Positions 16,095-36,349 of a stretch of 64,000 bases of DNA are shown piece by piece. The notes beneath the pieces were generated by a model. That model worked only from the letters and a program-made list of their open reading frames with translations. It did no database searches and was not told where the DNA came from. A program made the position numbers and the translations under genes. Within the stretch, counting starts at the first letter, position 1, and every line of letters begins with the position of its first letter. This DNA comes from Escherichia coli (GTDB lineage: Bacteria > Pseudomonadota > Gammaproteobacteria > Enterobacterales > Enterobacteriaceae), in NCBI RefSeq assembly GCF_013122565.1, contig NZ_CP053258.1, one strand, 5' to 3'.

Positions 16095-17188
<1,094 letters not shown>

Positions 17189-17337
17189 TTTACATCCCGG
17201 TAATGCAACAAAAGTTAGAGCTTTTAAACGCTGCTACTATACGCGCGCGATTGAGGTTTGGGAATGAGGGCAAGTTAAGGGAGCGTAAAAATTTATGGGC
17301 CTGAAGCGGCCCATAATTTTTTAAAGAGAATTCTGAT

Positions 17338-17744: not shown

Positions 17745-17758
17745 TTTTAGCTCCTTAC

Positions 17759-18898: not shown

Positions 18899-18913
18899 TT
18901 GACGACTCCTGTC

Positions 18914-20482
18914 TTAGCGTGCCGGCTGAGTAGTCGTGGAAGACTGCTCAAAGTGATAGCGACCGGTTTTCAGGCTGCTTGGGCCGAGGCGTGCAAACTT
19001 GAACATTAAGAACAATTCTGCCACCAGGAACAGGGTATACAGGCCGCAAATCAGCACCATTGAGAAGATGAGATCGCCTGCGGTCAGTGACGAGTTCGCC
19101 ACAGCTGTCGGCAGCACTTCACCGATAGCCCACGGTTGGCGGCCATATTCAGCCACGAACCAGCCCGCTTCTACAGCAATCCACGGCAGCGGAATACCGT
19201 ACAGCGCGGCGCGCAGCAGCCATTTTTTCTCGCCAATGCGGTTGCGGATGACACTCCAGAAAGAGAGCGCGATGATTGCCAGCAGCAGGAAGCCACACGC
19301 CACCATGATACGGAACGCGAAGTACAGCGGCGCTACACGCGGAATGGAGTCTTTGGTTGCCTGTTGAATCTGAGCTTCAGTCGCATCAGCCACGTTTGGC
19401 GTATAGCGTTTCAGCAGCAGACCGTAACCGAGGTCTTTCTTCATGCTATTGAACTGGTCACGAACCGCCTGGTCGGTAGAACCAGAACGCAGTTGTTCGA
19501 GCAGAGAGTAAGCCTTCATCCCGTTACGAATGCGTTCTTCATGCTGCACCATCAGTTCTTTCAGGCCGATAACTGGAGTATCCACGGAACGCGTTGCAAT
19601 GATGCCCAGCGCGTAAGGGATCTGGATCGCAAATTTGTTCGTCTCCTCTTCCTGATCAGGAATGCCGAACAGAGTAAAGGCAGCAGGCGCAGGTTGCGTT
19701 TCCCACTCGGCTTCAATAGCAGCCAGTTTGGTTTTCTGCACGTCGCCCATTTCGTAACCAGATTCATCACCCAGAACAATAACAGACAGAACGGCAGCCA
19801 TACCGAAGCTGGCAGCGATAGCAAAGGAGCGTTTAGCGAAGGCGAAGTCACGACCTTTCAGCATATACCATGCGCTGATACCGAGGATGAACATCGCGCC
19901 AGTCACATAACCAGACGCTACAGTGTGAACGAATTTCACCTGAGCAACCGGGTTAAGCACCAGCTCGGAGAAGCTCACCATCTCCATACGCATAGTTTCA
20001 AAGTTGAAATCGGACGCGATTGGGTTTTGCATCCAGCCGTTCGCAACCAGAATCCACAGTGCGGACAGGTTTGAACCGAGCGCCACCAGCCAGGTGACAC
20101 ACATATGCTGAACTTTACCCAGACGATCCCAACCGAAGAAGAACAGACCTACAAAGGTGGATTCGAGGAAGAAGGCCATCAGACCTTCGATTGCCAGCGG
20201 CGCACCGAAGATATCCCCTACATAGTGGGAATAGTAAGACCAGTTAGTCCCGAACTGGAACTCCATAGTCAGACCGGTAGCCACACCCAGAGCGAAGTTG
20301 ATACCAAACAACTTGCCCCAGAACTTGGTCATATCTTTATAAATCTGTTTGCCGGAAAGGACGTAGACCGTTTCCATAATGGCCAGCAGGAACGCCATAC
20401 CGAGCGTCAGTGGCACAAAAAGGAAGTGGTACATCGCGGTCAAGGCAAACTGTAAGCGCGACAGTTCGACTATATCTAACAT
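18914..20482 (-). CDS. cydA: cytochrome bd-I ubiquinol oxidase subunit I
   Basis: ORF 18914..20485 trimmed to the second Met ([28 protein letters not shown]) after an aggag RBS; 522 aa. Confidence 0.95.
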
Positions 20483-21287
20483 CATGACTCCTTGCTCATC
20501 GCATGAAGACTCCGAGAGTGAACCCCGTTAGAAAGGGTCACACGCATGCCCCAATACAAAATTATTTGCTCGCCTCTATCGTTGCCATTTCATCAAAAGA
20601 GGAAAAGACAATGATAAAAAAGTTGCAAATATGTTAATGAATAAACCAAATTGATCCCGTAATTATATTACGCCGCAAAATCCTTACAATAAACAGGTTT
20701 TTATTGAGCAAATTTGCATTTTTCGACAGTGATCAATTTATAGCGAAATTGTCACGATCTCACCAATTTGATCTACGACAATTTATCGTGTTTTGCAGAT
20801 TTTTTTCAAGAATTAAAAATTGATTTATATCAAAACTAACCAAATATGTTAATTATGTATAAACCATAGATCATTAGTGATTTTATTGTTAATTTATTGT
20901 GAAATATTTATGCAACACAATTATTACAATGAAAAGGTATAGATAAAAAACCAGTGTTGTATTTAACAGAACCGCCTTATCCACTTTTTATAATACCAAT
21001 TGATTAGAGTAGCCAATTTGTTGCTATTTTACATAACATATTTTTATCAAAGTTAATTGATTGTTGCCTTTATGAGCACCGACCGTAAGCCCGTTATGTT
21101 ATTGTTTCATTGGTAATAATCACTTAAATGTATCGATGGAACAGGTATGACTTAGCGGGAGTGATTGTTTCTGAGTGAACAGGGGCCACTTTTGCCTGAT
21201 AAATGAAAAATGAGCGATTTTTGCAAGTTAGTTTTTCTATAGCCGTGTACGCTCAGCGCCTCGCTTGATTACAATGAGGTTGCTGCT
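20483..21287. promoter_or_regulatory. long AT-rich cydA upstream regulatory region, shared with the divergent 314-aa ORF
   Basis: About 800 bp non-coding, strongly AT-rich with several TTGAT/ATCAA-like half-sites; the cydAB promoter region is remembered as long and multi-promoter. Individual sites not resolved. Confidence 0.5.
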
Positions 21288-22232
21288 ATGAGTCCTGATA
21301 ATATCGGTTCGGCTGTCAATCGCTTCTCAGGTTGGCCATCTAATGATCCTCTAAAAACAGATAAAGAATCAACGACATCACCCGTGACAGTGCAGGTAAT
21401 AAAGATGATTGCCGCCATCCTTGACCCACATCGGATAGTCGTTGGAATCGATACACTTTATACAACGCAGCGCGAAACATTTACCTCAGAGAGTCAACAG
21501 CTCATTGAATCAGCATTGCAAACACTTCATGTGATGAATTTAAATAACCTGGAAACAAATCGCGATGAAGAAGGTCACTATCTGGCTTTTGAATATAACG
21601 TTGACACCTCTGACAGAATAACCGTTTCTGCTTACAATGAAAAAAATCCTGGCTGCTATGGCCAATGTCTTTTAATACAGGATGACGAAACAGACTTATT
21701 CAACCTGATAAAAATTAAAATTTTTGAAGCCAGGCATAATTATGTCGCTCAATTGATGAGCGATCCAGAATTTATGTTCAAATTCAGTTATAGCGCTCAA
21801 CAAAATAGATTAGAACCTCATCTTCTGGTTCCCGCTTATTTCCCTCTAAAAACAAACGAACCGGTTACGCAAGAGGATGTACTGTTACTTTATCGTTTCT
21901 TTAAAATGAATGATGATTTTAACAAATTAACATCAGATGAATACATGAGTATCCTGACACCTCTGATGAAGTGTGAGCGTAGCGTCCACGACAACAACAG
22001 GTATGTGACGGGCAAAGATACCCTTCTTCTGGACTATCCTCCTTCTGGTAACCAGATACATTTCCATGTTTTCCCTGACGAATCAGCAACACTAGTCCTT
22101 TATTTTTCAAACAATGACCTTGAATATTTCGTCTTTGAAAGAGATATTCCGAGCCAGTATCGCTTTTTCAAAATGTTTACCAATCTGGCACTGGTTATAG
22201 ATCAGTTAACCGAAGCCCATAAAATACTTTAA
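21288..22232 (+). CDS. hypothetical protein, 314 aa, AT-rich codon usage, no recognisable motif
   Basis: ATG at 21288 with a GAGG RBS 8 nt upstream; Ser/Thr/Pro-rich N-terminus; no family recognised by eye. Confidence 0.55.
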   Translation: MSPDNIGSAVNRFSGWPSNDPLKTDKESTTSPVTVQVIKMIAAILDPHRIVVGIDTLYTTQRETFTSESQQLIESALQTLHVMNLNNLETNRDEEGHYLAFEYNVDTSDRITVSAYNEKNPGCYGQCLLIQDDETDLFNLIKIKIFEARHNYVAQLMSDPEFMFKFSYSAQQNRLEPHLLVPAYFPLKTNEPVTQEDVLLLYRFFKMNDDFNKLTSDEYMSILTPLMKCERSVHDNNRYVTGKDTLLLDYPPSGNQIHFHVFPDESATLVLYFSNNDLEYFVFERDIPSQYRFFKMFTNLALVIDQLTEAHKIL

Positions 22233-22312
22233 TTTTCTATATATCCCTATGGCAAATATTGCTAAACAATGCCTGGGGATTAATTTTTATTACTCACGGA
22301 AAGATTTAAATA

Positions 22313-22735
22313 ATGATATCATCTCAGATCTCTTTCAGTACTCTTCCTGTCAATGCAACATACGCTTCAGAGACAACAGTTGACACACAAAAATTCTCTG
22401 ACATCCTCTACTCAGCGGGGTGTTCCCTAAAGGATATGGCTTATCTGAGCAGATGTCTGGCATCAATACACCCGACTATCGCCAAAAACATTTATGAAAC
22501 AGAAAATCTCAGCGATCAAAAATTACTGCATATTGATTGCCGTAGTACAAATGACATCAAGATAAATATCTTTTTTGGTCAGCAACGAGAAGGATTAATT
22601 GAAATTAGTTCTGACACAGTTATTTTTTCGATACTGTCTTCATTGATTGACTCCGCCATTTCTAAATTTCAACATCAAAACCCGGTTAACGGTTCAGTTA
22701 ATCCTGAACTATTGTATGAGGATTATACTGATTAA
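22313..22735 (+). CDS. hypothetical small acidic protein, 140 aa
   Basis: Co-directional ORF 80 bp after the 314-aa ORF, same AT-rich composition; weak RBS, so the start is uncertain. Confidence 0.45.
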   Translation: MISSQISFSTLPVNATYASETTVDTQKFSDILYSAGCSLKDMAYLSRCLASIHPTIAKNIYETENLSDQKLLHIDCRSTNDIKINIFFGQQREGLIEISSDTVIFSILSSLIDSAISKFQHQNPVNGSVNPELLYEDYTD

Positions 22736-23281
22736 ATCCACCCTGTCGCGAAAAATGGCCTGCGTTATTGCCAGACGTAATAAAACCTTTGATTAACGTT
22801 ACTCATACTGATAGCACCTTCATGTACCTCTCTTTTTTACGCAAATCAAAAGAGCTAACGAAGGTCATAATTCGCATGAATCATTAACCATTTGTTATTT
22901 TCAACATTACTTTTACATTAAGCAGAAATGAATGGTAGTGAAATTCGACTTAAATTTTATGAAATGCATTTACTTATGGCTAAACCCATATCACTAAAAT
23001 GCAAATTAGAAGTAGATCACAAATATCTCAATACACCAAATCAAGTTAATTTTAAAAATTTAACATTCATGACATTAGTTGACATAACACACTGAATTAA
23101 CATGGAAATTTAAAAACACACTTTAAACAATCATTTCCCGAAAGACATTTTGAAAATAGATCAATTGCAACATTACGGTCAGATAAAGACACTCCTGTGA
23201 TATTAAACCTGTGCCGTTATGAACGGCCATAAATACGACGTGTGTAACTTATTTTACTCTCTGTCTTACAAAGGATTACCC

Positions 23282-23731
23282 ATGAAGAAAGCAACACTTG
23301 TGATTGGCGTTATTGGCGCGGACTGCCATGCAGTAGGCAATAAAGTTCTGGACCGCGTTTTTAGCAACCACGACTTCAGAGTCATTAATCTGGGCGTAAT
23401 GGTCAGCCAGGACGAATATATTGATGCTGCCATTGAAACTGGCGCTGACGCGATTGTCGTCTCCTCTATCTATGGGCATGGCGATATCGACTGTCTGGGC
23501 ATGCGCGAACGCTGCATCGAGCGTGGACTGGGGGACATCCTGCTCTATGTGGGCGGTAACCTGGTGGTAGGAAAACATGACTTCGCTGACGTGGAAAACA
23601 AGTTCAAAGAGATGGGATTTGATCGCGTCTTTGCCCCAAGTCATGACTTAGAAGAGGTTTGTCAGCTGATGGCCCACGATATCAACCAACGTCATGACGT
23701 TGATACTCGCATTCTTGAAGAGGCAATCTGA
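23282..23731 (+). CDS. mamA: glutamate mutase sigma (S) subunit, B12-binding (methylaspartate mutase small subunit)
   Basis: ORF 23219..23731 trimmed to the ATG at 23282 after AAGGA; [24 protein letters not shown] carries the DxHxxG cobalamin-binding motif and aligns with clostridial GlmS/MutS. Confidence 0.85.
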
Positions 23732-25119
23732 TGCAAATCGTCTCTGTCGATATTGGATCGACGTGGACCAAAGCAGCCCTCTTCACCCGGGAGGGGGACG
23801 CGTTAACGTTGGTTAACCACGTACTGACCCCAACCACCACCCATCATCTGGCGAAGGGGTTTTTCTCCAGCCTGAACCAGGTGTTAAACGTAGATAATGC
23901 CCTCCCCCTGTTAAACAGCGGTGAGGTTGCATTGAAGTATTCCTCCTCTGCCAAAGGTGGGCTGGCGGTTGCCGCAATGGGATTGGTGCCTTCTATCACC
24001 CTGGAAACCGCGAAAGTAACCGCTCACTCTGCGGGTGCTAAAATTGCGCAATATTACGCCTACAAGCTGAACCGCCGTGATATCCAGGCACTGGAAGAAA
24101 CGCAGCCCGATATTCTCTTGTTCACCGGCGGCACCGACGGCGGAGAAGAAAGCTACGGACTGAATAACGCCCGTGTGCTGGCAGAATCCAAACTCGACTG
24201 CGCCATTATTTATGCCGGAAACCGGGATATTCAGGACGAGGTGCAGGAGATCCTCGGACATAAAGACCTGACCATCGTCGACAACGTTCTGCCCGATCTT
24301 GACCATCCGAACCCTTTAGCCGCACGCCAGGCTATCTGCGACATATTCCTTAAACGCATCGTTAAAGGGAAAGGGCTGGATGTCATTGTTGATAAAACAG
24401 GCGAAGAACCAATGCCGACACCATGGACGGTCTTTGAACTGGTTAAGGCAATCAGTAACGTCGATCACAGCTGGAAAGAGTTCATGCTGATCGACATGGG
24501 CGGCGCAACCACCGATGTCTATTCCGCCTGTGCCAACACGCTCTCGCCCGACACCGTTTTACACGGCGTACCGGAACCCTTCGTAAAACGGACGGTGGAA
24601 GGCGATCTGGGAATGCGCGTCTCGGCAATGGTGGTTGGTGAAAGTGCGAAAGAGTTAGTCAATGTAAATTTTGCTCAGCAACCCGCACAGCTGGACGCTT
24701 TTTATCATTACCTCCGTCATTTAGTCGCTCATCCCGACTACTTACCCGCGAATGCAGAAGAAAAATATTTCGATACCGTCCTGGCCGGACTGTGTGTGGG
24801 TTATGCCACCGAAAGACATGCGGGCACCAAAAAAGAGGTCTGCACCTGCGTCGGCAATGTCGATTTACAAATGGGACGTGACCTGACAACCGTGCGTAAA
24901 GTCGTCGGATCCGGCGGATGGCTCTCGCGTGCCAGTCAGTTCGATATGCATCACTGGTTGAAATACCGCGAGTTAAACGACGACGGTAAACGCATTCTCT
25001 TACCGACCGAATTTGAATATTACCGCGATTCCCGGGGGCTATTACCACTGCTGGCAAACGTCGCCAGAGTCGATCCGCTGGCCGCCGCGCGCACCAGTAT
25101 TCAATGCTTAACCCTATAA
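23731..25119 (+). CDS. glmL: glutamate mutase L protein (GlmL/MutL, putative chaperone/reactivase)
   Basis: 462 aa, starts [18 protein letters not shown] (actin-like ATPase N-terminus); start overlaps the S-subunit stop (tgATG); sits between S and E as in clostridial operons. Confidence 0.8.
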   Translation: MQIVSVDIGSTWTKAALFTREGDALTLVNHVLTPTTTHHLAKGFFSSLNQVLNVDNALPLLNSGEVALKYSSSAKGGLAVAAMGLVPSITLETAKVTAHSAGAKIAQYYAYKLNRRDIQALEETQPDILLFTGGTDGGEESYGLNNARVLAESKLDCAIIYAGNRDIQDEVQEILGHKDLTIVDNVLPDLDHPNPLAARQAICDIFLKRIVKGKGLDVIVDKTGEEPMPTPWTVFELVKAISNVDHSWKEFMLIDMGGATTDVYSACANTLSPDTVLHGVPEPFVKRTVEGDLGMRVSAMVVGESAKELVNVNFAQQPAQLDAFYHYLRHLVAHPDYLPANAEEKYFDTVLAGLCVGYATERHAGTKKEVCTCVGNVDLQMGRDLTTVRKVVGSGGWLSRASQFDMHHWLKYRELNDDGKRILLPTEFEYYRDSRGLLPLLANVARVDPLAAARTSIQCLTL

Positions 25120-25137
25120 CAATTAAGGCTGCAATCA

Positions 25138-26583
25138 ATGGAACTTCGAAATAAGAAATTAACCCATGACGAATTCATGACCGAGCGGCAACAGGTACTG
25201 AAAACCTGGGAAACCGGCAAGGATGTTGAAAATTTTGAAGATGGCGTTAAATACCAACAAACCATTCCTGAGCATAAACGCTTCTCTCTCGCCCTGCTGA
25301 AAGCAGACAAGGAAGGTAAAACCCTTAGCCAACCGCGCGCAGGTGTGGCGCTGATGGACGAACACATCGAACTACTGAAAACACTACAAGAAGAGTGCGA
25401 TCTGCTGCCAAGCACCATCGATGCATATACCCGTCTGAATCGGTACGAAGAAGCGGCTGTAGGGATTAAAAAATCCATCGAAGCCGGAACCTCTAAACTG
25501 AACGGTTTACCGGTAGTTAACCACGGAGTCGCAGCTTGCCGTCGCCTCACCGAAACCCTGCAAAAACCGCTACAGATCCGCCACGGCACGCCAGATGCGC
25601 GTCTGCTGGCTGAAATCTCGATGGCCAGTGGCTTTACCAGTTACGAAGGCGGCGGCATTTCCTACAACATTCCGTATGCCAAACGCGTAACGCTGGAAAA
25701 ATCGATCCGCGACTGGCAGTACTGCGACCGTTTAATGGGGATGTATGAAGAACACGGGATCCGCATCAACCGCGAACCATTTGGCCCACTAACGGGTACG
25801 CTGATCCCGCCGTTTATCTCGCACTCTATCGCCATAATCGAAGGCTTGCTGGCGCTGGAACAGGGTGTGAAATCTATCACCGTTGGTTATGGCCAGGTCG
25901 GCAGCCTGACGCAGGATGTTGCGGCGATCCAGTCTCTGCGTGAACTTGCACATGAATACTTTCAGAGCTATGGCTATACCGACTATGAATTAAGTACCGT
26001 GTTTCACCAGTGGATGGGCGGCTTTCCGGAAGACGAATCGAAAGCGTTCGCTATTATCTCCTGGGGCGCAGCCGTCGCGGGGATGTCTGGTGCCACCAAA
26101 GTCATCACCAAAAGTCCGCACGAAGCCTGGGGTATCCCAACTGCCGCTGCCAACATTCAGGGGCTGAAAGCCTCCCGCCAGATGCTCAACATGGTCAATG
26201 AGCAGAAATTCCCGCCATGCCCTGCGGTTGAACTGGAAATTGAACTGATTAAGAGCGAGGTTCGCGCGGTACTGAATAAAGTGTTCGAACTGGGTAATGG
26301 TGATATTGCGCGCGGTACGGTGCTGGCATTTGAAGCGGGCGTACTGGATGTGCCGTTTGCGCCAGCCGCCTGCAACGCGGGCAAAATTCTTCCGGTCCGT
26401 GACAACACCGGCGCGATACGCGTACTGGAAGCCGGAGCCGTTCCATTGCCAAAAGATATTCTCGACCTCCACCACGATTACGTTGCGGAACGCGCACGCT
26501 GTGAAGGACGCCAACCGACATTCCAGATGGTTGTAGATGACATCAATGCTGTATCCCACAGTAAATTAATAGGAAGACCATAA
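25138..26583 (+). CDS. mamB: glutamate mutase epsilon (E) catalytic subunit (methylaspartate mutase large subunit)
   Basis: 481 aa, starts MELRNKKLTHDEFMTERQQVLKTW; conserved blocks PRAGVALMDEHIELL, HGTPDARLLAEI, FHQWMGGFPEDESKAF match clostridial GlmE. Confidence 0.88.
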   Translation: MELRNKKLTHDEFMTERQQVLKTWETGKDVENFEDGVKYQQTIPEHKRFSLALLKADKEGKTLSQPRAGVALMDEHIELLKTLQEECDLLPSTIDAYTRLNRYEEAAVGIKKSIEAGTSKLNGLPVVNHGVAACRRLTETLQKPLQIRHGTPDARLLAEISMASGFTSYEGGGISYNIPYAKRVTLEKSIRDWQYCDRLMGMYEEHGIRINREPFGPLTGTLIPPFISHSIAIIEGLLALEQGVKSITVGYGQVGSLTQDVAAIQSLRELAHEYFQSYGYTDYELSTVFHQWMGGFPEDESKAFAIISWGAAVAGMSGATKVITKSPHEAWGIPTAAANIQGLKASRQMLNMVNEQKFPPCPAVELEIELIKSEVRAVLNKVFELGNGDIARGTVLAFEAGVLDVPFAPAACNAGKILPVRDNTGAIRVLEAGAVPLPKDILDLHHDYVAERARCEGRQPTFQMVVDDINAVSHSKLIGRP

Positions 26584-27824
26584 TGAAAATAAAACAGGCC
26601 CTGTTCACCGCTGGCTATTCCTCATTCTATTTCGATGACCAGCAGGCGATAAAAAACGGAGCGGGTCACGACGGCTTTTTTTATACCGGGGAGCCAGTAA
26701 CACAGGGGTTTAACGCCGTACGTCAGGCCGGGGAGTGCGTATCGGTACAGTTGATTCTGGAAAACGGCGCGGTCGCTGTAGGTGACTGTGCTGCCGTACA
26801 GTATTCCGGGGCAGGTGGTCGCGATCCACTGTTCCTCGCAGAGCACTTTATTCCGTTCCTCAACGACCATATTAAGCCATTACTGGTAGGCCGCGATGTG
26901 GATACTTTCCTGCCGAATGCCCGTTTCTTCGACAAATTGCGTATTGACGGCAACTTGCTGCATACCGCCGTGCGCTACGGATTATCACAGGCGCTGCTTG
27001 ATGCTACCGCGCTGGCAACCGGCCGTCTGAAAACTGAAGTGGTCTGTGATGAATGGCAGTTGCCACGCGTGGCGGAATCCATTCCATTATTTGGTCAGAG
27101 CGGCGACGATCGATATATCGCCGTCGATAAGATGATCCTTAAGGGCATCGACGTGCTGCCCCATGCGCTGATTAATAACGTCGAAGAGAAGCTGGGCTTT
27201 AAAGGTGAAAAACTGAGCGAATATGTCCGCTGGTTGTCGGATCGCATTCTAAGCAAGCGCACCAGCGCGCGCTACCACCCTACCCTGCACATCGATGTAT
27301 ACGGCACTATCGGTCTGATCTTCGATATGGATCCGCTCCGCTGTGCGCAATACATCGCCAGCCTGGAAAAAGAAGCGCAAGGCCTGCCGCTCTACATCGA
27401 AGGGCCGGTCGATGCCGGTAACAAGCCCGATCAAATTCGCCTGCTGACCGCGATTACCAAAGAGCTGACGCGCCTCGGTTCCGGCGTGAAAATTGTGGCC
27501 GATGAATGGTGTAACACCTACCAGGATATTGTTGATTTCACTGATGCTGCCAGTTGTCACATGGTGCAAATCAAAACCCCGGATCTGGGCAGTATTCACA
27601 ACATCGTCGATGCGGTTCTTTACTGCAACAGCCACAGCATGGAAGCGTACCAGGGCGGCACCTGCAATGAAACTGATGTCAGTGCCCGCACCTGTGTCCA
27701 CGTCGCCCTTGCCGCTCGCCCTATGCGTATGCTGGTAAAACCAGGGATGGGCTTTGACGAAGGCCTCGATATCGTCTTCAACGAAATGAATCGTACTATC
27801 GCGCTGTTGCAGGCTAAGGATTAA
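26583..27824 (+). CDS. 3-methylaspartate ammonia-lyase (beta-methylaspartase)
   Basis: 413 aa, start overlaps the E-subunit stop (taATG); blocks CAAVQYSGAGGRDPLF, FGQSGDDRY, HMVQIKTPDLG, CNET match clostridial methylaspartase (enolase superfamily). Confidence 0.88.
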   Translation: MKIKQALFTAGYSSFYFDDQQAIKNGAGHDGFFYTGEPVTQGFNAVRQAGECVSVQLILENGAVAVGDCAAVQYSGAGGRDPLFLAEHFIPFLNDHIKPLLVGRDVDTFLPNARFFDKLRIDGNLLHTAVRYGLSQALLDATALATGRLKTEVVCDEWQLPRVAESIPLFGQSGDDRYIAVDKMILKGIDVLPHALINNVEEKLGFKGEKLSEYVRWLSDRILSKRTSARYHPTLHIDVYGTIGLIFDMDPLRCAQYIASLEKEAQGLPLYIEGPVDAGNKPDQIRLLTAITKELTRLGSGVKIVADEWCNTYQDIVDFTDAASCHMVQIKTPDLGSIHNIVDAVLYCNSHSMEAYQGGTCNETDVSARTCVHVALAARPMRMLVKPGMGFDEGLDIVFNEMNRTIALLQAKD

Positions 27825-27827
27825 CAA

Positions 27828-29198
27828 ATGGCTCGTTCTTTTAAAGTCTTATCGCCAACGGCAATCCTCGGGTATGGATTCCCGGAAGAGAGCTTCCGCA
27901 AAGCGATGGCAGAATCGCCCGATCTGATCGCCGTTGATGCCGGCTCTTCCGATCCAGGCCCCCACTACCTCGGGGCAGGCAAACCGTTTACCGATCGCGC
28001 AGGGGTCAAGCGCGATCTGCGCTATATGATCACCGCAGGCGTGCAAAATAATATACCGGTGGTGATCGGAACGGCTGGCGGTTCTGGTGCCGCACCACAC
28101 CTGGAGTGGTGCCGAGAAATAATTCATGAGATTGCCCGGGAAGAGCACCTCTCGTTCTCGATGGCGTTGATCCCGGCAGACGTTGACAAAGCCATCGTCC
28201 ACCAGGCGCTGGATAACGGCAAAATCACGGCGCTGGATTTTGTCCCGCCGTTAACCCACGACGCGATTGACGAAAGTACGTATATCGTTGCGCAAATGGG
28301 CATCGAACCCTTCCAGCGGGCTCTGAAAGAAGGCGCGCAAGTGGTGCTGGGCGGGCGCGCTTACGACCCGGCCTGCTTTGCTGCGCTCCCGATCATGCAA
28401 GGCTTTGATGAAGGTCTGGCGCTGCATTGTGGGAAAATCCTTGAGTGCGCAGCAATCGCCGCAACGCCCGGCTCAGGCTCTGACTGTGCGATGGGCATCA
28501 TTGATGACAACGGCTTTACGCTGAAGACATTTAATCCGAAGCGTAAATTTACCGAAACGTCAGCAGCTGCACACACACTGTATGAAAAATCCGATCCCTA
28601 CTTCCTGCCAGGACCTGGCGGCGTGTTGAACCTGAAAGGCTGCACATTTAAAGCAGTCAATGACGGCGAAGTCTACGTCAGCGGTTCTAAGCATGAAGAA
28701 ACGCCGTATGCCCTGAAACTGGAAGGTGCACGACGGGTGGGCTTCCGCTGTCTGACCATCGCCGGAACGCGCGACCCGATCATGATCGCCGGGATCGATA
28801 AAATCATCGATGAAGTCAAAATCAGCGTTTCGCGTAACCTGTCGCTTGACGATGACAGCATTCGCATCAATTTCCACCTGTACGGCAAAAACGGGGTGAT
28901 GGGCGACCATGAACCGATGCAAACTACCGGGCATGAGCTGGGGATTGTCCTTGATGTAGTTGCACCGACCCAGGAAATTGCCAACAGCGTTTGCTCGCTG
29001 GTGCGCTCTACCATGCTGCACTACGGCTATGAAAACCGCATCGCTACCGCAGGCAACCTGGCGTTCCCGTTCTCCCCTTCTGATATCCAGGGCGGGCCGG
29101 TATACGAATTTTCCATATATCACCTGATTGAAGCCAACGACGCTCTGCGTTTTGATTTCCATATTGAACAGGTGACGCCAGAAGGAGTTCAGGTATGA
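27828..29198 (+). CDS. uncharacterised protein, 456 aa (tentatively AtuA-like/DUF1446-type; family not verified)
   Basis: ATG at 27828 with AAGGA 7 nt upstream, 3 bp after the methylaspartase stop; Gly-rich, no cofactor motif recognised by eye. Confidence 0.6.
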   Translation: MARSFKVLSPTAILGYGFPEESFRKAMAESPDLIAVDAGSSDPGPHYLGAGKPFTDRAGVKRDLRYMITAGVQNNIPVVIGTAGGSGAAPHLEWCREIIHEIAREEHLSFSMALIPADVDKAIVHQALDNGKITALDFVPPLTHDAIDESTYIVAQMGIEPFQRALKEGAQVVLGGRAYDPACFAALPIMQGFDEGLALHCGKILECAAIAATPGSGSDCAMGIIDDNGFTLKTFNPKRKFTETSAAAHTLYEKSDPYFLPGPGGVLNLKGCTFKAVNDGEVYVSGSKHEETPYALKLEGARRVGFRCLTIAGTRDPIMIAGIDKIIDEVKISVSRNLSLDDDSIRINFHLYGKNGVMGDHEPMQTTGHELGIVLDVVAPTQEIANSVCSLVRSTMLHYGYENRIATAGNLAFPFSPSDIQGGPVYEFSIYHLIEANDALRFDFHIEQVTPEGVQV

Positions 29199-29512
29199 AA
29201 CAGTCAATTGTCTCACTGGCGCAAGTCATTCGTTCGAAAAATGCCGGTCCTTACGAACTGGTTTTAGATATTTTATTTAAAACGAAAGAAAACTATGAGC
29301 GAGTTAAATCATCAGGGCAATTAACCCCAGAACTGATTGCGCGCTTATATCATGTTGAACCTGACTTTATTCATCGTATTGTCTGGTTTGATCCTTCTAA
29401 CGCAGTAAAAATCGTCATGCCACGAGATATTATCTCCGGGAATGTAGGTGACAATGATGTCTATGGTGCACAGCAACATGCACCTTTATTAAATATGAGT
29501 TTCGATTTGTAA
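29195..29512 (+). CDS. uncharacterised small protein, 105 aa, translationally coupled to the preceding ORF
   Basis: ATG at 29195 overlaps the upstream stop (ATGA); no recognisable motif. Confidence 0.55.
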   Translation: MKQSIVSLAQVIRSKNAGPYELVLDILFKTKENYERVKSSGQLTPELIARLYHVEPDFIHRIVWFDPSNAVKIVMPRDIISGNVGDNDVYGAQQHAPLLNMSFDL

Positions 29513-29672
29513 AAATCCGAACACTTTTAGCCAACTGACATCCCATCACTTATTGCAGTTCAACACTTCAGCTATTTGTAAGGTTGTAATAGCAGGTAGA
29601 TGCCTGAGTCTCTATTCAGGCATCTACTTCTCCTGATTCTGATTTATCGCCGTGCACCTGATGGAGGAAAAA

Positions 29673-30953
29673 ATGAAGAAAATAAGTTTAACCACGATGA
29701 TTCTTTTGGCGCTGGTACTTGGAATGATTATCGGCGTAGTGCTCAATAACACTGCTTCACCGGAAACCGCAAAACTCTATGCGCAAGAAATATCGATATT
29801 CACGACGATTTTCTTACGACTGATAAAAATGATTATCGCTCCGTTAGTGGTCTCTACCCTGGTGGTAGGTATAGCTAAAATGGGCGATGCCAAAGCCCTT
29901 GGTCGTATTTTTTCTAAAACACTTTTTTTATTTATTTGCGCCTCATTGCTGTCAATTGCCTTAGGCTTGATAACAGTAAATTTCTTCATGCCAGGCACAG
30001 GAATTAATTTTGTTGCACACGGAGCCGAAACCACCGGAGTGGTCGCGTCAGAACCCTTTACGCTAAAAGTATTTATTTCGCATGCTTTCCCCACCAGCAT
30101 TGTCGATGCCATGGCGCACAATGAAATTTTGCAAATCGTGGTGTTCTCAATTTTCCTCGGCTGTAGCCTGACGGCGATTGGCGAGAAAGGCAGCGCCATC
30201 GTTCACGCCTTAGATTCGCTGGCACATGCCATGTTAAAGCTCACTGGCTACGTCATGCTCTTCGCTCCCCTGACCGTATTCGCCGCTATTTCAGCATTGA
30301 TTGCTGAACGAGGACTGGCAGTTATGGTGAGCGCCGGGATCTTTATGGGTGAATTTTATTTCACCATGTTGTTACTTTGGGTACTGCTTATCGGTCTGGC
30401 CATCGTTTATGTCGGCCCCTGCATCAGACGCCTGACCCGCGCCCTTTCGGAACCCGCCCTGCTGGCATTTACCACATCCAGTTCTGAAGCGGCTTTTCCG
30501 GGAACGCTTGAAAAACTGGAGCAATTTGGCGTTTCCCCCAAAATTGCCAGCTTTGTCTTACCCATTGGCTACTCATTTAATCTCGTTGGATCAATGGCCT
30601 ACTGCTCCTTCGCCACAGTTTTCATCGCCCAGGCCTGCAATATCCATTTATCCATCGGTGAGCAAATCACCATGCTGTTGATCCTGATGTTGACCTCGAA
30701 AGGAATGGCTGGCGTACCACGCGCCTCAATGGTGGTTATCGCCGCCACGCTCAACCAGTTCAATATTCCGGAAGCAGGGCTGATCTTGCTGATGGGCGTT
30801 GATCCGTTCCTTGATATGGGGCGTTCCGCGACAAACGTCATGAGCAACGCAATGGGCGCTGCGATGGTGAGTCGGTGGGAAGGCGAACATTTCGGCGAGG
30901 GCTGTCGGGGTAAAGCATTAAAACCCAATGAATCGAACGTTGCTCTGCCCTGA
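29673..30953 (+). CDS. dicarboxylate/amino acid:cation symporter (GltP/DctA family), candidate glutamate or C5-dicarboxylate transporter
   Basis: ORF 29652..30953 trimmed to the ATG at 29673 after GGAGGA; polytopic, with the family serine-rich motif (TTSSSEAAFPGTLEKLE) as in GltP. Confidence 0.8.
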   Translation: MKKISLTTMILLALVLGMIIGVVLNNTASPETAKLYAQEISIFTTIFLRLIKMIIAPLVVSTLVVGIAKMGDAKALGRIFSKTLFLFICASLLSIALGLITVNFFMPGTGINFVAHGAETTGVVASEPFTLKVFISHAFPTSIVDAMAHNEILQIVVFSIFLGCSLTAIGEKGSAIVHALDSLAHAMLKLTGYVMLFAPLTVFAAISALIAERGLAVMVSAGIFMGEFYFTMLLLWVLLIGLAIVYVGPCIRRLTRALSEPALLAFTTSSSEAAFPGTLEKLEQFGVSPKIASFVLPIGYSFNLVGSMAYCSFATVFIAQACNIHLSIGEQITMLLILMLTSKGMAGVPRASMVVIAATLNQFNIPEAGLILLMGVDPFLDMGRSATNVMSNAMGAAMVSRWEGEHFGEGCRGKALKPNESNVALP

Positions 30954-31060
30954 GGGGGATCTTAAGCAATCAGAAGCCAATGACTACGCATTTTTATAAG
31001 CCGGATCATGAAGTTAGACGGCAATTAAGTAACACTAACGTTTAAGGTGAAAAGTGAAAT

Positions 31061-32713
31061 ATGTCCAAACCATTTATCTGGCAAGAACCGTTTCTACAAA
31101 ATAAAGACGGTACAGAATATACATTAATTAGCGATCAACATATTACAGTAACGGAATTAGACGGCGAAGAAGTGATAAAAATCGCTCCTGAAGCATTAAC
31201 GCTGCTTGCCCGGCAGGCATTTTATGAAGCCTCTTTTTTCTTACGTTCCGCTCATTTGCAACAGGTCGCCAGCATTCTTAACGATCCGCAGGCCAGTAGT
31301 AATGATAAATACGTTGCGTTGCAGTTATTACGTAATGCTGAAGTCTCAGCAAAAGGGGTATTACCCAACTGTCAGGATACCGGCACCGCAACTATTGTTG
31401 CCAGGAAAGGGCAACAGATATGGACCGGAGGTAACGACGCTGAAGCCTTAAGCAAAGGCATTTACACCACTTTCCAGGAAAATAATCTGCGCTTTTCACA
31501 AAATGCGCCGCTGGATATGTATACCGAAGTCAATACGCAAACCAATCTCCCGGCGCAGATTGATATCAGCGCCGTCGCTGGTGATGAGTACCATTTTCTC
31601 TGTGTTAATAAAGGGGGCGGCTCCGCCAATAAAGCCACGCTTTATCAGGAAACCAAATCCTTATTGCAACCAGAAAAACTGACCGCATTTTTAATCGAAA
31701 AAATGAAATCGCTGGGCACCGCTGCCTGCCCGCCTTACCACATCGCCTTTGTCGTCGGAGGGCTTTCAGCCGATCAAACCTTAAAAGTTGCCAAGCTGGC
31801 TTCTACGAAATATTACGACAATTTGCCCACCAGCGGAAACGAGCAGGGACAAGCATTCCGTGATATTGAGCTGGAAAAAGTGATGCTCGAGGCCAGTCAG
31901 CAATTTGGTATTGGTGCGCAATTTGGGGGTAAATATTTCGCTCATGATATTCGCGTCATTCGTCTGCCGCGTCACGGTGGCTCCTGCCCGATAGCTATGG
32001 CGCTCTCCTGTTCAGCCGATCGCAATATCAAAGCAAAAATTAACAAGCACGGTATCTGGCTGGAAAAACTCGAACACAATCCGGGGCAATATATTCCAGC
32101 CTCACTATGGGAAGAAAATCACGCGCAACATGTACAACTGGATCTAAACCGTCCGTTGCGTGACGTGATGCAGGATCTCGCCAGATTACCGGTAGGTACC
32201 CGCGTGTCGTTAAGTGGTCCCATCGTAGTGGCGCGCGATATCGCCCACGCCAAAATAAAAGCGCGGCTGGATAGCGGCGAATCGATGCCGGAGTACCTGA
32301 AGCATCATATTGTCTATTACGCTGGCCCGGCGAAAACACCGGAGAACATGGCCTGCGGTTCACTAGGTCCAACCACGGGCGGTCGAATGGACGGTTATGT
32401 CGATACCTTCCAGGCTGCTGGCGGCAGTCTGGTGATGTTATCGAAAGGTAACCGCAGCCAGCAGGTCACCGATGCCTGTCACAAACATGGTGGCTTCAAT
32501 CTGGGAAGTATTGGCGGTGCAGCTGCGTTACTGGCGCAAGAATATGTCAAAAGTCTGCGTTGCCTGGAATACCCGGAGCTGGGTATGGAAGCGGTGTGGA
32601 TGATGGAAGTGGAAAATCTGCCCGCATTCATCCTGGTAGATGATAAAGGCAATAATTTCTTTAGTCAGTTTGAGCAGCAACACCGCTGCGCCAGTTGCCC
32701 TGCGGGACATTAA
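31061..32713 (+). CDS. class I (Fe-S) fumarate hydratase family protein, FumA/FumB paralogue; candidate mesaconase
   Basis: 550 aa, full-length similarity to FumA as remembered (blocks [55 protein letters not shown]); context suggests mesaconate hydration. Confidence 0.85.
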
Positions 32714-32722
32714 GGAAAATGA

Positions 32723-33325
32723 ATGGAAGCGCGAATTTCAACTGAACGGCATGTGCAGCGCCAGCAGAAATTGAAGGAACAGGTCGATACGCGCGTCGCG
32801 GCGGCGATAGAGAAAAAAGGGATCTTGATTGTTTTCACCGGCAATGGCAAAGGGAAATCCACTGCCGCGTTTGGTACGGTGACGCGCGCGGTGGGTCATG
32901 GCAAAACGGTGGGGGTTGCGCAGTACATCAAGGGGCAATGGGACAACGGCGAATACAACCTTCTCCAGCCGCTCGGGGTTGAGTTTCATATTATGGGAAC
33001 CGGTTTTACCTGGGAGACACAGAACCGGCAAGCGGATATCGACGCGGCGAAAGAGGTCTGGTCGGAAAGCAAACGGATGCTGGCTGACAAGCGTTACGAC
33101 TTAGTGGTGCTTGATGAGCTGACCTATATGCTGGCTTACCATTATCTGGATACCGAAGAAGTGATCGCTTCTCTGCAAAACCGCCCGGCACAACAAAGTG
33201 TCATTGTCACCGGACGCGGTTGCCACAGTCAGATATTAAAAATGGCGGATACGGTCAGCGAAATCCGCCCCGTCAAACATGCTTTTGATAACGGCATTCA
33301 GGCCCAGCCGGGTATCGACTGGTAA
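32723..33325 (+). CDS. cob(I)alamin adenosyltransferase, BtuR/CobA-family paralogue
   Basis: 200 aa with P-loop GNGKGKSTAAFG and full-length similarity to BtuR as remembered; AAGGA RBS; last gene of the operon. Confidence 0.85.
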   Translation: MEARISTERHVQRQQKLKEQVDTRVAAAIEKKGILIVFTGNGKGKSTAAFGTVTRAVGHGKTVGVAQYIKGQWDNGEYNLLQPLGVEFHIMGTGFTWETQNRQADIDAAKEVWSESKRMLADKRYDLVVLDELTYMLAYHYLDTEEVIASLQNRPAQQSVIVTGRGCHSQILKMADTVSEIRPVKHAFDNGIQAQPGIDW

Positions 33326-33328
33326 TAA

Positions 33329-33356
33329 CTGCGCCTGGCATCCCGCCAGGCGCAGG
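33329..33356. terminator. bidirectional terminator between the B12-operon end and the convergent LysR gene
   Basis: Perfect 11-bp inverted repeat ctgcgcctggc / gccaggcgcag around a 5-nt loop, followed by gtttt. Confidence 0.7.
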
Positions 33357-33358
33357 TT

Positions 33359-34264
33359 TTACATCTCCTGCGGTACGACCGATTTCGCCAGCAACCATTC
33401 ACGAAATTGCTGCAAGTGCGGCGAGTCAGACTTCTCTTCCTGCCACGTCATAATAAAACGATTACCGGTACGAATAGGCACATCACAGGGAATCACCATA
33501 TCGCCACTATCCAAATCATGTTGAATAGCGAACCGTGGTAACAGCGCCACGCCGAGATTAGAGCGCACGGCGGCAATCAACATTGAAAGCAAATCGAAAC
33601 GTGGCCCGTTGTTGACCAGCGGACTGCTAACGCCAGATAAAGCAAACCACTCTTCCCAGCCAGTAATACGGGTGCTTTGATGCAGAAGTGGTAACTCAGT
33701 AAGCAGTTCTGCCACTGACAGTTTTTGATCGGACATTGCAAGCAAACTGCCGCTGCATACCGGCAAAATCTCCTCTTCAAAGAGATATTCTACTTCCGCC
33801 CAGGGCGCGCAAAAATTTTCGCGCATAATGACAGCATCGTACTCCCGATTAAGAAAATCGCCGTTATTAGCTAAAGAATGAATATTAACAATAATATCGG
33901 GATGTAACTTTGTGAATTCATGTAAATTTGGGATTAACCAGTGGGTACTAAAAGTAGGATTAACGGCAAGTTCAATAACCTGAACCGTAGGCTGCCAGGT
34001 CATAATGGTATTGGTATCGCGTTCCAGCTTATTTAATGTTTCTTTTACTATCCCCAGGTAATACTTCCCTGCATCATTAAGAAAAATACGTTTTTTAGAG
34101 TGTGAAAATAACGGAGTACGTAAAAATTCCTCCAGCGCACTTACTTGTCTGAATACTGCACTTTGGGTTAACGCTAACTCCTCTGCCGCTCTGGTATAAC
34201 TTTCATGACGTGCGACGACCTCAAAAGTCACCAGCAGTTCCGTTTTAGGTATTTTTCCTCGCAT
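33359..34264 (-). CDS. LysR-family transcriptional regulator
   Basis: ORF 33359..34294 trimmed to the Met after a ggaagg RBS (MRGKIPKTELLVTFEVVARHESYTRAAEELALTQSAVFRQVSALEE is a typical LysR HTH); about 301 aa. Confidence 0.85.
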   Translation of the reverse strand: MRGKIPKTELLVTFEVVARHESYTRAAEELALTQSAVFRQVSALEEFLRTPLFSHSKKRIFLNDAGKYYLGIVKETLNKLERDTNTIMTWQPTVQVIELAVNPTFSTHWLIPNLHEFTKLHPDIIVNIHSLANNGDFLNREYDAVIMRENFCAPWAEVEYLFEEEILPVCSGSLLAMSDQKLSVAELLTELPLLHQSTRITGWEEWFALSGVSSPLVNNGPRFDLLSMLIAAVRSNLGVALLPRFAIQHDLDSGDMVIPCDVPIRTGNRFIMTWQEEKSDSPHLQQFREWLLAKSVVPQEM

Positions 34265-34854
34265 AATGCCTTCCGTGAAAAAATAACAATTCAAAAAATT
34301 ATTTTATAAAAAACAGTAGCGCTAATGAATATCATAATTCAAATAAACAAACCAGTCAGCTATATGTCTAACCAGGAAAATAAAGTGACAATAATCCTAA
34401 AACAGGAATTTCACCTCAGTTATCCGCATGCAATGCTTTAAAGCCATTATTGCAAGAATATTATTCATATACATGAATATACTCTAAATAAGTCGAGTTG
34501 GAGGAAGGGAACAAATAATGAATTTCCAGAAGCTTACATAAGTAAGTGACCTGGGTGAGCGAACATCGATGCAGCACATGCAACTTGAATTATGACAAGT
34601 ATACAATGATAAATTTAGATACCCTATGTTATATATTATCTATGTCCGGTTAAATTGAATGAGTCATGGCCTTCAAAGACATCGCAAAAGATAATTTCTC
34701 TTTAACAATAAGCCAGATTTACCACTTGTAAAAATTGCTATCGCCACATACACTACGCGCGTTTTCTTTCCCTTTTGCTGGCTGCTGACCGGAAAGACAA
34801 AATTACCCTCGCAATACAGGGGGTTGTTTAACGTCTATATTTCAGGACAGCGTT

Positions 34855-36252
34855 ATGCATCATCTTTCAAGGCTTGATAAAGCCTTTCTGCGCAAAGGGA
34901 TCCAACTTTCCCGCGCCAACAATATTGTTTCATTATCTCGTCCATCAGGTGTCAGTGCCCGCGTACTGCTGCCAGACGAACTGCCGCTGGAAGAAAAAGC
35001 AGTAACACAACTGCTTGATTTTGCAGAAGTGAAGCTACCAGACCACCCAGGTTATGTACGCCAGACGTGTGCGACGCCAGATTTTCATCCCGGCAATGGC
35101 GTCCCCGTTGGCGCGGTGGTAGCCTCAACGCCGGATTTAGTCATTCCCGCCGCCATCGGCACCGATATTTCTTGTGGCATGCGGCTGCTGACGACCGGAA
35201 TAACACTTGAGCAAGCCGAAGCGCATAAAGACGTCATCACTCAGCGGTTAACGCAAGTGTTACTGCAAAATGAGCGCGATGTTCCGTTATCTGCACGAGC
35301 GTTCACCGCGCTTTTTGATGGCGGGCCGGCAGATTGCATGTCGGCCTTGCCATCAGCAGGTCTCTGGACACGCACGAATATCCCCCGAATGGTACAAGAG
35401 ATTGACCGCTGCATTGGGCTGAACGAGCATAAAAGTCATTCGCGTTATGCCCCACCCGCCCTGCTGGCAACGGACCGCGCATTACTCCGCGACCCTTGTC
35501 TGGGTACGCCGGGTTCAGGTAATCATTTTATTGAACTTCAGGTAGTTGATAGCGTGATCGATCGCCATGTAGCCTGGCAACAAGGGCTGAAAACAGGCGA
35601 TATCGTGGTGATGATCCATAGTGGATCGCGAGATGTCGGCTTTTACGTCGGACGACGCTGGACGGACCGTGCCCGCGCAGACTGGCCCGCTGGGCATAAA
35701 CATCCACAAAGCGGGTTATATGGTCTGGCTGGTGGACTGGCGGAGGAATATCTACAAGCGATGGGAATGGCGGCGCGTTACGCATGGTTAAATCGCGTGA
35801 CCATTACGGAAATGGTGCGCGTATGTTTTGCCGATTTATTCCATCAGGATGAATCACATCTGGTGGTGGATGTGCCGCATAACATCATCCTTCGCGAGCA
35901 TGAGATGAATATTCATCGCAAAGGCGCAACACCGGCACGTGCGGGCGATCTGGCGTTAATCCCCGGTTCAATGGGCGATTATTCGTGGCTTGCGGTAGGT
36001 TGCGGCAACCCGGAGTGGTTGTGGTCATGCAGTCACGGAGCAGGACGCAGCCAGCGTCGGCAGGCCATGCGCGCACACGCGACTGAAGAGTCAACGCTGC
36101 CGTGGCAATGCGTAACACTGCGTGAAGAACGGCGTATTGAGGAAGCGCCAGCTGCTTATAAAGATATTGGTCCGGTTATCGAAGCCCAACAAGAAGCTGG
36201 ATTAATTCAGCCAGCGGTCAGATTTCGACCGTGGTTAACGTTTAAGGCATAA
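34855..36252 (+). CDS. RtcB-family RNA ligase paralogue (465 aa, N-terminally extended)
   Basis: Motifs typical of RtcB: PDFHPGNG, GTDISCGM (cf. GVDIGCGM), and HGAGR near the C-terminus; divergent from the LysR gene across 590 bp. Confidence 0.75.
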   Translation: MHHLSRLDKAFLRKGIQLSRANNIVSLSRPSGVSARVLLPDELPLEEKAVTQLLDFAEVKLPDHPGYVRQTCATPDFHPGNGVPVGAVVASTPDLVIPAAIGTDISCGMRLLTTGITLEQAEAHKDVITQRLTQVLLQNERDVPLSARAFTALFDGGPADCMSALPSAGLWTRTNIPRMVQEIDRCIGLNEHKSHSRYAPPALLATDRALLRDPCLGTPGSGNHFIELQVVDSVIDRHVAWQQGLKTGDIVVMIHSGSRDVGFYVGRRWTDRARADWPAGHKHPQSGLYGLAGGLAEEYLQAMGMAARYAWLNRVTITEMVRVCFADLFHQDESHLVVDVPHNIILREHEMNIHRKGATPARAGDLALIPGSMGDYSWLAVGCGNPEWLWSCSHGAGRSQRRQAMRAHATEESTLPWQCVTLREERRIEEAPAAYKDIGPVIEAQQEAGLIQPAVRFRPWLTFKA

Positions 36253-36274
36253 AAAAGGCCATCATACGATGGCC
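36251..36274 (-). terminator. rho-independent terminator of the sdh-suc transcript / SdhX
   Basis: Hairpin ggccatc-gtat-gatggcc followed on the minus strand by a U-run (plus-strand aaaaaa at 36251-36256); begins immediately after the RtcB-like stop codon. Confidence 0.75.
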
Positions 36275-36349
36275 AACCATGTCGAAACCGACAGCCCTTC
36301 GCCATTCCTGTAGAGGGAAGCGGCGAGGGCTATTTCTTATTACAGATAT
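36251..36349 (-). ncRNA. sdhX: putative SdhX (RybD) sRNA from the sucD 3' UTR
   Basis: About 100 nt between the sucD stop (36350) and the terminator; contains ...caggaauggcgaagggcugucgguuucgacaugguuggccaucguaugauggccuuuu, which matches my recollection of the SdhX 3' region. Confidence 0.5.

Follow-up and report, generated by a model that had tools for sequence, protein, structure and literature searches.

Positions 23282–33325 of the window, the 64,000-nucleotide stretch of the Escherichia coli contig NZ_CP053258.1 that was analysed, hold nine co-directional genes that we take, with a probability of roughly 85%, to be the enterobacterial FumD island, encoding every step of the methylaspartate (mesaconate) route from glutamate to NH4+, pyruvate, and acetate. 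This island has been known since 2015, when Kronen and Berg described the same cluster in E. coli O157:H7, with FumD as ECs0757 (PMC4682846). The original prediction from the DNA is largely right in its interpretation, but it is not new and its novelty was overstated: the 2015 paper already contains the cluster, kinetic data for FumD, and growth tests of the kind proposed, with cobalamin and without it (PMC4682846). The potential for glutamate use has been recognised for equally long, and the question of what becomes of citramalate has meanwhile been answered by the lyase CmlAB. About one-fifth of E. coli strains, among them almost every O157:H7 strain, have the genetic means for a B12-dependent, redox-neutral conversion of glutamate, an abundant compound in the gut, to pyruvate and acetate.

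Gene content and proposed pathway

All nine genes are full-length + strand open reading frames at the positions first predicted. Proteins were named by their scores against curated NCBIfam equivalog or subfamily cut-offs, which seven of the nine exceed, in agreement with the gene identities and the methylaspartate (mesaconate) route originally proposed. The first gene, glmS (23282..23731, 149 aa), encodes the B12-binding subunit S of glutamate (methylaspartate) mutase (NF002612, 253 bits, cut-off 110; TIGR01501, 246 bits); its residues 14–19 read DCHAVG, which fits the B12-binding DxHxxG motif, and its ATG is preceded by AGGA 8 nt upstream. It is followed by glmL (mutL; 23731..25119, 462 aa) for the accessory or reactivating protein (NF040745, 511 bits, cut-off 475; TIGR01319, 895 bits) and by glmE (25138..26583, 481 aa) for the catalytic subunit E (TIGR01503, 866 bits, cut-off 390), which aligns over its full length with the Clostridium GlmE structures 1CCW and 6H9E at 629–633 bits. 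The product of mal (26583..27824, 413 aa), 3-methylaspartate ammonia-lyase (MAL; TIGR01502, 544 bits, cut-off 286), shares 93.2% sequence identity with the Citrobacter amalonaticus enzyme (PDB 1KKO). Next come the AtuA/DUF1446 and DUF4387 genes, discussed below as cmlA and cmlB, a symporter gene of the DAACS family, a class I fumarase gene, and cobO.

The junctions had been described as overlapping or very short, which is true of six of the eight (−1, 18, −1, 3, −4, and 9 nt). The overlaps quoted for 23731, 26583, and 29195 are real: glmS and glmL overlap by 1 nt (TGATG at 23731), glmE and mal share position 26583, and cmlA and cmlB share 29195–29198, a 4-nt ATGA overlap. The description does not extend to the gaps of 160 nt between the DUF4387 and symporter genes and of 107 nt between the symporter and fumarase genes. 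The former contains a 16-bp hairpin (29594..29629, + strand; RNA fold −25.6 kcal/mol, z −4.0 versus shuffles), possibly an attenuator or a processing or stability element. Homology and context point to transcription as a single operon, with room for more than one transcript at the 107- and 160-nt junctions, one of which carries this stable hairpin.

In the proposed pathway, substrate, presumably glutamate, would be imported by the DAACS symporter and converted from L-glutamate to (2S,3S)-3-methylaspartate by GlmS and GlmE, together an adenosylcobalamin-dependent mutase whose activity GlmL would maintain. Scavenged corrinoid would be adenosylated by CobO; to our knowledge, E. coli does not synthesise B12 de novo. 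MAL would then release NH4+ and form mesaconate, which FumD, an oxygen-sensitive Fe-S hydratase, would hydrate to (S)-citramalate. Finally, CmlA (AtuA/DUF1446) and CmlB (DUF4387), with a nucleotide held in their active site, would split citramalate into pyruvate and acetate, with no need for CitDEF acyl-carrier/CoA machinery. The net conversion of glutamate to NH4+, pyruvate, and acetate would be redox neutral, and in a host with pyruvate formate-lyase, ATP could follow via acetyl-CoA and acetyl phosphate.

Genes for class I fumarases (fumA/fumB) and a corrinoid adenosyltransferase (btuR) are present elsewhere in E. coli, and dedicated roles had been predicted for the additional copies in the cluster. 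For the fumarase, fumD (31061..32713, 550 aa), this role is borne out: the protein falls in the FumD equivalog NF011921 (1274 bits, cut-off 1060), whereas the FumA model stays below its cut-off (926 < 1105). Identity with its O157:H7 orthologue reaches 98.4%, and the FumD characterised from O157:H7 strain ATCC 700728 was reported to have a kcat/Km of 2e6 for mesaconate versus 7.5e5 for fumarate and to be 2–3-fold better on mesaconate (PMC4682846). The window's fumarase is accordingly best described as a predicted mesaconase. E. coli FumA and FumB have the same fold and Fe-S chemistry and show promiscuous mesaconate hydration, with efficiencies that are 4% and 19% of those on fumarate (PMC4682846), but FumD is placed in an NCBIfam equivalog of its own and prefers mesaconate. 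The adenosyltransferase prediction fares equally well, as the product of cobO (32723..33325, 200 aa), a cobO/cobA-type ATP:cob(I)alamin adenosyltransferase, lies above the TIGR00708 cut-off (247 bits, cut-off 168; NF004637, 296 bits) and matches Salmonella CobA (PDB 1G5R) with 298 bits over residues 6–200.

The symporter (29673..30953, 426 aa; the longest open reading frame starts from GTG at 29652) had been assigned to the GltP/DctA family. It is indeed a DAACS member, but it scores below both curated cut-offs (GltP, 302 < 638 bits; DctA, 312 < 513 bits). It is marked GltP in Fig 5 of Kronen and Berg (PMC4682846), and context suggests that its substrate is glutamate. Since the score for DctA, a C4-dicarboxylate transporter, is as high as that for GltP, the protein might instead import an external C5 compound (3-methylaspartate, mesaconate, or citramalate) released by gut microbes, with the mutase marginal or running in reverse. 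The 160-nt gap and its hairpin, which divide glmSLE-mal-cmlAB from symporter-fumD-cobO, would suit such an arrangement, as would the reported lack of growth of E. coli on glutamate (PMC4682846). We nevertheless consider an external C5 substrate improbable: the genes for the mutase, its reactivase, and a dedicated adenosyltransferase are under strong purifying selection, which would be unexpected for a dispensable mutase step, and cobO shares a sub-block with the symporter gene and fumD.

Breakdown of glutamate itself thus remains the preferred reading. The activities of the window's own gene copies would follow from homology and context, while others have measured the kinetics of FumD, detected MAL activity in Enterobacteriaceae, and shown that mesaconate use in vivo depends on CmlAB. 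In O157:H7 ATCC 700728, MAL activity was not detected, and glutamate neither supported anaerobic growth nor stimulated it, with or without three cobalamins (PMC4682846). In view of these negative results, operation of the pathway in vivo in Escherichia is a prediction from the genes.

Probable citramalate lyase and the end of the pathway

The two genes after mal had been listed as unknowns, and the cluster was said to encode no citramalate lyase, leaving the end of the pathway unresolved. Neither statement holds. The cmlA product (27828..29198, + strand, 456 aa), an AtuA/DUF1446-type large subunit, and the cmlB product (29195..29512, + strand, 105 aa), the DUF4387 small subunit, match chains A and B, respectively, of PDB 9ERQ and 9EVF at 92% and 85% identity (for CmlB and 9ERQ_B, 84.6% across 104 aa). 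These chains carry the 2025 deposit names "citramalate lyase subunit A (cmlA) / B (cmlB)"; entry 9ERQ was released on 2025-10-22 and 9EVF on 2025-10-08. In both the deposited and the window pair, the two subunits measure 456 and 105 aa, and the window's genes are adjacent and overlapping. Moreover, CmlAB from Raoultella planticola has served in vivo as a functional lyase that converts citramalate to pyruvate and acetate; growth on mesaconate required the Raoultella cmlAB, and the acetyl units were confirmed by 13C (bioRxiv 10.64898/2026.01.16.699985). Homology and context suggest that the window's CmlAB likewise cleaves (S)-citramalate to pyruvate and acetate.

The genomic context of the pair was conserved at a distance. 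In six of seven distant bacterial loci, the AtuA and DUF4387 genes share the locus with glmS, glmE, and mal, and in five of those six cmlA lies directly after mal; no CitDEF-type genes were found within 9–10 kb of the pair in the distant loci. A distant P-loop open reading frame, considered as a relative of CobO, was rejected. In the island itself, a classical CitDEF acyl-carrier lyase with CitCXG is absent: all open reading frames are accounted for, and none is CitD-, CitE-, or CitF-like. The citramalate step is predicted to be covered by CmlAB, which is non-homologous to CitDEF. In the literature searched, we found no primary paper on CmlAB biochemistry, and neither that search nor one for the locus tags led to anything besides the 2015 paper and the 2026 preprint, so that the lyase assignment rests on the names of the PDB deposits, the use of the enzyme in one preprint, and genomic context.

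This evidence also bears on a pathway that would stop at (S)-citramalate, with citramalate excreted, for instance as a metabolite aimed at the host, while the AtuA/DUF4387 pair would serve an unrelated role. Kronen and Berg could not detect citramalate lyase activity in extracts from cells grown on citrate, acetate, or propionate and raised secretion as a possibility (PMC4682846). However, MAL activity was not detected in those extracts either, which indicates that the cluster was not expressed, and the missing lyase activity in the 2015 extracts is therefore uninformative. Given also that the 9ERQ/9EVF orthologues are named citramalate lyase and have citramalate and pyruvate bound, that CmlAB sustains mesaconate-dependent growth in vivo, and that tight synteny of the pair with mal extends across phyla, we regard citramalate as a very unlikely end point and retain cleavage by CmlAB as the last step.

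The titles of the two PDB entries, 'AMPPNP - citramalate complex' and 'ADP - pyruvate complex', offer a hint at the chemistry, as such complexes suggest ATP activation of the C4 carboxylate to an acyl phosphate. The CmlAB fold has no other solved relative. By extension from CmlAB, the AtuA family as a whole may consist of lyases that split acetate from tertiary beta-hydroxy acids. For annotation, 'AtuA family' and 'DUF4387' genes beside mal should be corrected to citramalate lyase.

The island, its conservation, and its presumed regulatory DNA

Comparison of the window with K-12 MG1655 by blastn places the cluster in an accessory island of 15.4 kb (20859..36242) between sucD/sdhX and cydA, where it replaces mngR-mngA-mngB of K-12. 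On one side, 16940–20858 corresponds to the K-12 MG1655 region from ybgC to upstream of cydA; on the other, 36243–36399 corresponds to its sdhX/sucD end. Of 5426 complete E. coli genomes, 1135 carry the cluster (10.5 kb) at 95–99% identity, a patchy distribution (21%), and such identity over this length in so many genomes puts the gene set far beyond chance. In the lineage of the window, an RtcB-family gene lies between the LysR gene and sdhX/sucD, an arrangement present in only 26 of the 5426 genomes.

The nine genes are under purifying selection, with a dN/dS of 0.067 from 94 synonymous versus 21 non-synonymous differences; in glmE, 22 differences are synonymous and none is non-synonymous. 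All nine open reading frames are intact, and their proteins are 98.4–100% identical to the O157:H7 orthologues. Such conservation, kept in 1135 genomes, makes it hardly credible that present-day Escherichia carries the island as a silent relic of horizontal transfer that has lost all function there, despite its patchy distribution, AT-rich upstream DNA with no recognisable promoter, and the failure to detect expression in any of the laboratory conditions tried (PMC4682846).

Upstream of glmS lies an AT-rich region of 546 nt (22736..23281, + strand), which is presumed to be the promoter or regulatory region; GC content is 36–40% over 20500–23000. A sigma-70 promoter scan gave no + strand site in 22736–23281, with counts overall below those of shuffles, and matches to the FNR and CRP consensus upstream of glmS were limited to sites with two mismatches, at chance level. 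A perfect FNR site occurs at 20820, inside the K-12-homologous cydA promoter region. An Rfam search of 20000–37000 (E <= 1) gave no cobalamin riboswitch or other relevant known RNA. Also upstream of glmS is a low-GC open reading frame of 314 aa (21288–22232), for which Pfam and NCBIfam profile searches gave no match; its identification with a conserved gene of about 310 aa that follows cmlB in other phyla was rejected, as the two show no similarity.

Downstream, a LysR-family regulator gene (LTTR; 33359..34252, − strand; longest open reading frame to 34294) is convergent with the cluster. This gene is present as an annotation in E. coli records, and its similarity to the GcvA subfamily (219 bits) is below the cut-off. 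Between it and cobO lies an 11-bp hairpin with nine G-C pairs (33329..33355), the best terminator-like site in the scan and likely the terminator at the operon end. Homology and context suggest that the LysR protein regulates the operon. A broader proposal, which we offer tentatively and hold to be more doubtful than probable, is that CmlAB splits off a C2 unit at the level of acetyl phosphate after ATP activation and that the island, silent in the laboratory and under strong purifying selection, is switched on by a signal that the neighbouring LysR protein presumably senses.

Comparison with known systems

The closest known system is the FumD cluster of E. coli O157:H7, which has the same gene order as the window (glmS-glmL-glmE-mal-DUF1446-(DUF4387)-GltP-like-fumD-cobA, then the LTTR) and occupies the same chromosomal site between sucD and cydA, but lacks the RtcB-family gene of the window lineage. 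The clostridial cluster of C. tetanomorphum and C. tetani comprises glmSLE, mal, mesAB, and citDEF/citCXG (PMC4682846). It shares with the window the chemistry from glutamate to pyruvate and acetate, and its GlmS, GlmL, GlmE, and MAL are homologous. In contrast, one fused class I fumarase is the predicted mesaconase in the window, where clostridia have the two-subunit MesAB, and the lyase is of the AtuA/DUF4387 type, unrelated to the clostridial acyl-carrier CitDEF with CitCXG. Unlike the clostridial cluster, that of the window also has a transporter and an adenosyltransferase built in.

Identities and layout of the cluster

The feature is real, and its annotation in the original prediction is mostly right. 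An ORF map of window positions 20000-37000 shows nine co-directional plus-strand ORFs filling 23282-33325: glmS, glmL, glmE, mal, cmlA (AtuA/DUF1446), cmlB (DUF4387), a symporter gene, fumD, and cobO. The map and the sequence bear out the predicted coordinates and the quoted overlaps at glmS/glmL (-1 nt; TGATG at 23731), glmE/mal (-1 nt), and cmlA/cmlB (-4 nt; ATGA at 29195). The very short junctions that had been proposed are found in six of eight cases, these three and glmL/glmE (18 nt), mal/cmlA (3 nt), and fumD/cobO (9 nt), but not on either side of the symporter gene, where the gaps are 160 nt (from cmlB) and 107 nt (to fumD). The 160-nt gap holds a very stable 16-bp hairpin (29594-29629; -25.6 kcal/mol, z = -4.0) followed by a U-poor tail; the hairpin might act as an attenuator, might stabilise the RNA, or might belong to a REP-like repeat. 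The region's strongest terminator-like hairpin (33329-33355; 11 bp, 9 G-C) directly follows the cobO stop, between cobO and the convergent LysR gene.

When scored against curated NCBIfam cut-offs, 7 products pass, among them GlmS (253 bits, cut-off 110), which contains the cobalamin-binding motif DxHxxG, GlmL (511, 475), GlmE (866, 390), methylaspartate ammonia-lyase (MAL; 544, 286), the class I fumarate hydratase (model NF011921; 1274, 1060), and the CobA-type adenosyltransferase (247, 168). The fumarase falls below the cut-off of the FumA model (926 < 1105), and MAL shares 93% identity with the Citrobacter amalonaticus enzyme, whose crystal structure is known. The symporter, predicted to be of the GltP/DctA family, is indeed a DAACS member but scores under both the GltP and the DctA cut-offs, so that its substrate can be suggested from context only. 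PGAP annotation of the cluster uses these same gene names.

Exactly this cluster was described in Enterobacteriaceae by Kronen and Berg (PLoS One 2015, PMC4682846), with a map comprising GlmS, MutL/GlmL, GlmE, Mal, a DUF1446 protein, GltP, FumD, CobA, and an LTTR; both the cluster and its mesaconase, along with the experiments suggested in the original prediction, were already in the literature. At that time, 26.5% of E. coli strains had the cluster, and among O157:H7 strains the share was 90.6% (PMC4682846). The suggested hydratase assay had been run on purified FumD (ECs0757), which favoured mesaconate with a kcat/Km of 2 x 10^6 M^-1 s^-1 versus 7.5 x 10^5 for fumarate (PMC4682846). The growth experiment was negative: in anaerobic cultures, with or without hydroxo-, cyano-, or adenosylcobalamin, glutamate supported no growth and gave no stimulation, and MAL activity was undetectable (PMC4682846).

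Probable citramalate lyase and the proposed pathway

The 2015 authors left the fate of citramalate open; extracts with citrate lyase, isocitrate lyase, or methylisocitrate lyase failed to cleave it (PMC4682846). The original prediction likewise counted two unknowns and no citramalate lyase, which is contradicted by structures deposited in 2025 and a 2026 preprint. The 456-aa AtuA/DUF1446 protein is 91.9% identical to chain A, and the 105-aa DUF4387 protein 84.6% identical to chain B, of PDB entries 9ERQ ('AMPPNP - citramalate complex') and 9EVF ('ADP - pyruvate complex'), chains that the depositors named 'Citramalate lyase, subunit A (cmlA)' and 'subunit B (cmlB)'. The preprint worked with Raoultella planticola cmlAB, donated by the Berg laboratory, and reports that an acetyl-CoA auxotroph grew on mesaconate in a plasmid-dependent manner, as isotope data confirmed (bioRxiv 10.64898/2026.01.16.699985). 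No primary biochemical paper on CmlAB was found in the literature searched.

In the pathway we propose, the DAACS symporter would take up the substrate, and AdoCbl-dependent GlmSE, with GlmL as reactivase, would by homology convert glutamate to 3-methylaspartate. E. coli depends on imported corrinoid, and CobO, judging from its homologues, would adenosylate what is scavenged. MAL would deaminate 3-methylaspartate to mesaconate, as homology and the published enterobacterial MAL activity suggest; FumD would hydrate mesaconate to (S)-citramalate, as shown for the O157:H7 enzyme; and CmlAB would cleave this to pyruvate and acetate, to which the PDB names and ligands, the preprint, and the context point. 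The overall conversion is redox neutral, and ATP could be gained afterwards in an enteric host by way of pyruvate formate-lyase, Pta, and AckA. Since acetate in its free form leaves poorly as a carbanion, and since an ATP analogue is bound alongside the substrate in one complex and ADP alongside a product in the other, transient carboxyl phosphorylation in the CmlAB step is a plausible speculation, to which the depositors presumably know the answer.

Island, selection, and regulation

Of 5426 complete E. coli genomes, 1135 carry the 10.5-kb cluster, with 95-99% identity. Relative to K-12, window positions 20859-36242 are an insertion flanked by sdhX/sucD and the cydA promoter region, in place of mngR-mngA-mngB (mannosylglycerate utilisation in K-12), which is absent from both the window and O157:H7. 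In strain CP52E, mngB and mngA are retained alongside the island, which is therefore associated with differing deletion states of the neighbouring locus. O157:H7 shares the window's arrangement without the RtcB-family gene (34855-36252, plus strand; 465 aa), which stands alone between the LysR gene and sdhX/sucD, scores under the NCBIfam RtcB cut-offs, and has neither rtcA nor rtcR nearby. The order cobO-LysR-RtcB-sucD occurs in only 26 of the 5426 genomes, where identity reaches 97.1% at most. The best identity of the window's core genes to any complete E. coli genome is 99.0%; the host is therefore E. coli itself or something very closely related, and its lineage is not closely represented among those genomes.

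The window's nine genes show 94 synonymous and 21 non-synonymous differences from their O157:H7 counterparts (dN/dS = 0.067), with no amino-acid change in glmE, cmlB, or cobO; although the cluster is silent in the laboratory, this speaks against a relic in decay. Searches of the cluster revealed no riboswitch and no convincing promoter, and matches to FNR or CRP sites did not exceed chance. The only leads to its regulation are the adjacent LysR gene and the AT-rich leader, the island's upstream 2.4 kb (20859-23281; 36-40% G+C). The leader has two co-directional, family-less ORFs, of 314 aa (21288-22232; no NCBIfam or Pfam match) and 140 aa (22313-22735; no NCBIfam match); each has a conserved counterpart in O157:H7, and the shorter is frameshifted in CP52E. 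A perfect FNR consensus, TTGATTTATATCAA, lies at 20820-20833 in the K-12-homologous cydA promoter region, 26 nt from the island boundary; it serves cydAB regulation, not the glutamate cluster.

Context of the probable lyase genes in distant bacteria

We examined seven loci from distant bacteria, whose CmlA homologues are still 62-70% identical. AtuA and DUF4387 are clustered with glmS, glmE, and mal in six of the seven (Rifleibacterium, one Lentisphaerae MAG, and four contigs from genomes or metagenomes); the AtuA gene lies directly 3' of mal in five of these six, and a class I fumarase is nearby in three.

All six glm-mal-cmlAB clusters also have a conserved ORF of ~307-318 aa directly 3' of the DUF4387 gene (L004 11712-12665; L005 11677-12618; L006 11698-12654; L008 14269-15201; L009 10698-11621; L010 10706-11629). 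The copies whose sequence was read (L004-L006) carry the Walker-A motif GAEGxGKST and match no NCBIfam family; the L005 copy, 62% identical to that of L004, gives no significant match to a Pfam or PDB family. The ORF may encode a so far uncharacterised NTPase with an accessory role in the pathway. The Escherichia cluster lacks it and has cobO instead; no CobA-type gene is listed within 9-10 kb in the six distant loci.

In the seventh locus, an Accumulibacter-labelled contig (L007 10001-11679), the AtuA and DUF4387 pair adjoins rpoBC without glm or mal and can therefore occur outside the glutamate pathway. None of the seven loci has CitD/E/F-type genes within 9-10 kb. This pattern is as expected if AtuA and DUF4387 supply the lyase step, for which the clostridial counterpart is CitDEF.
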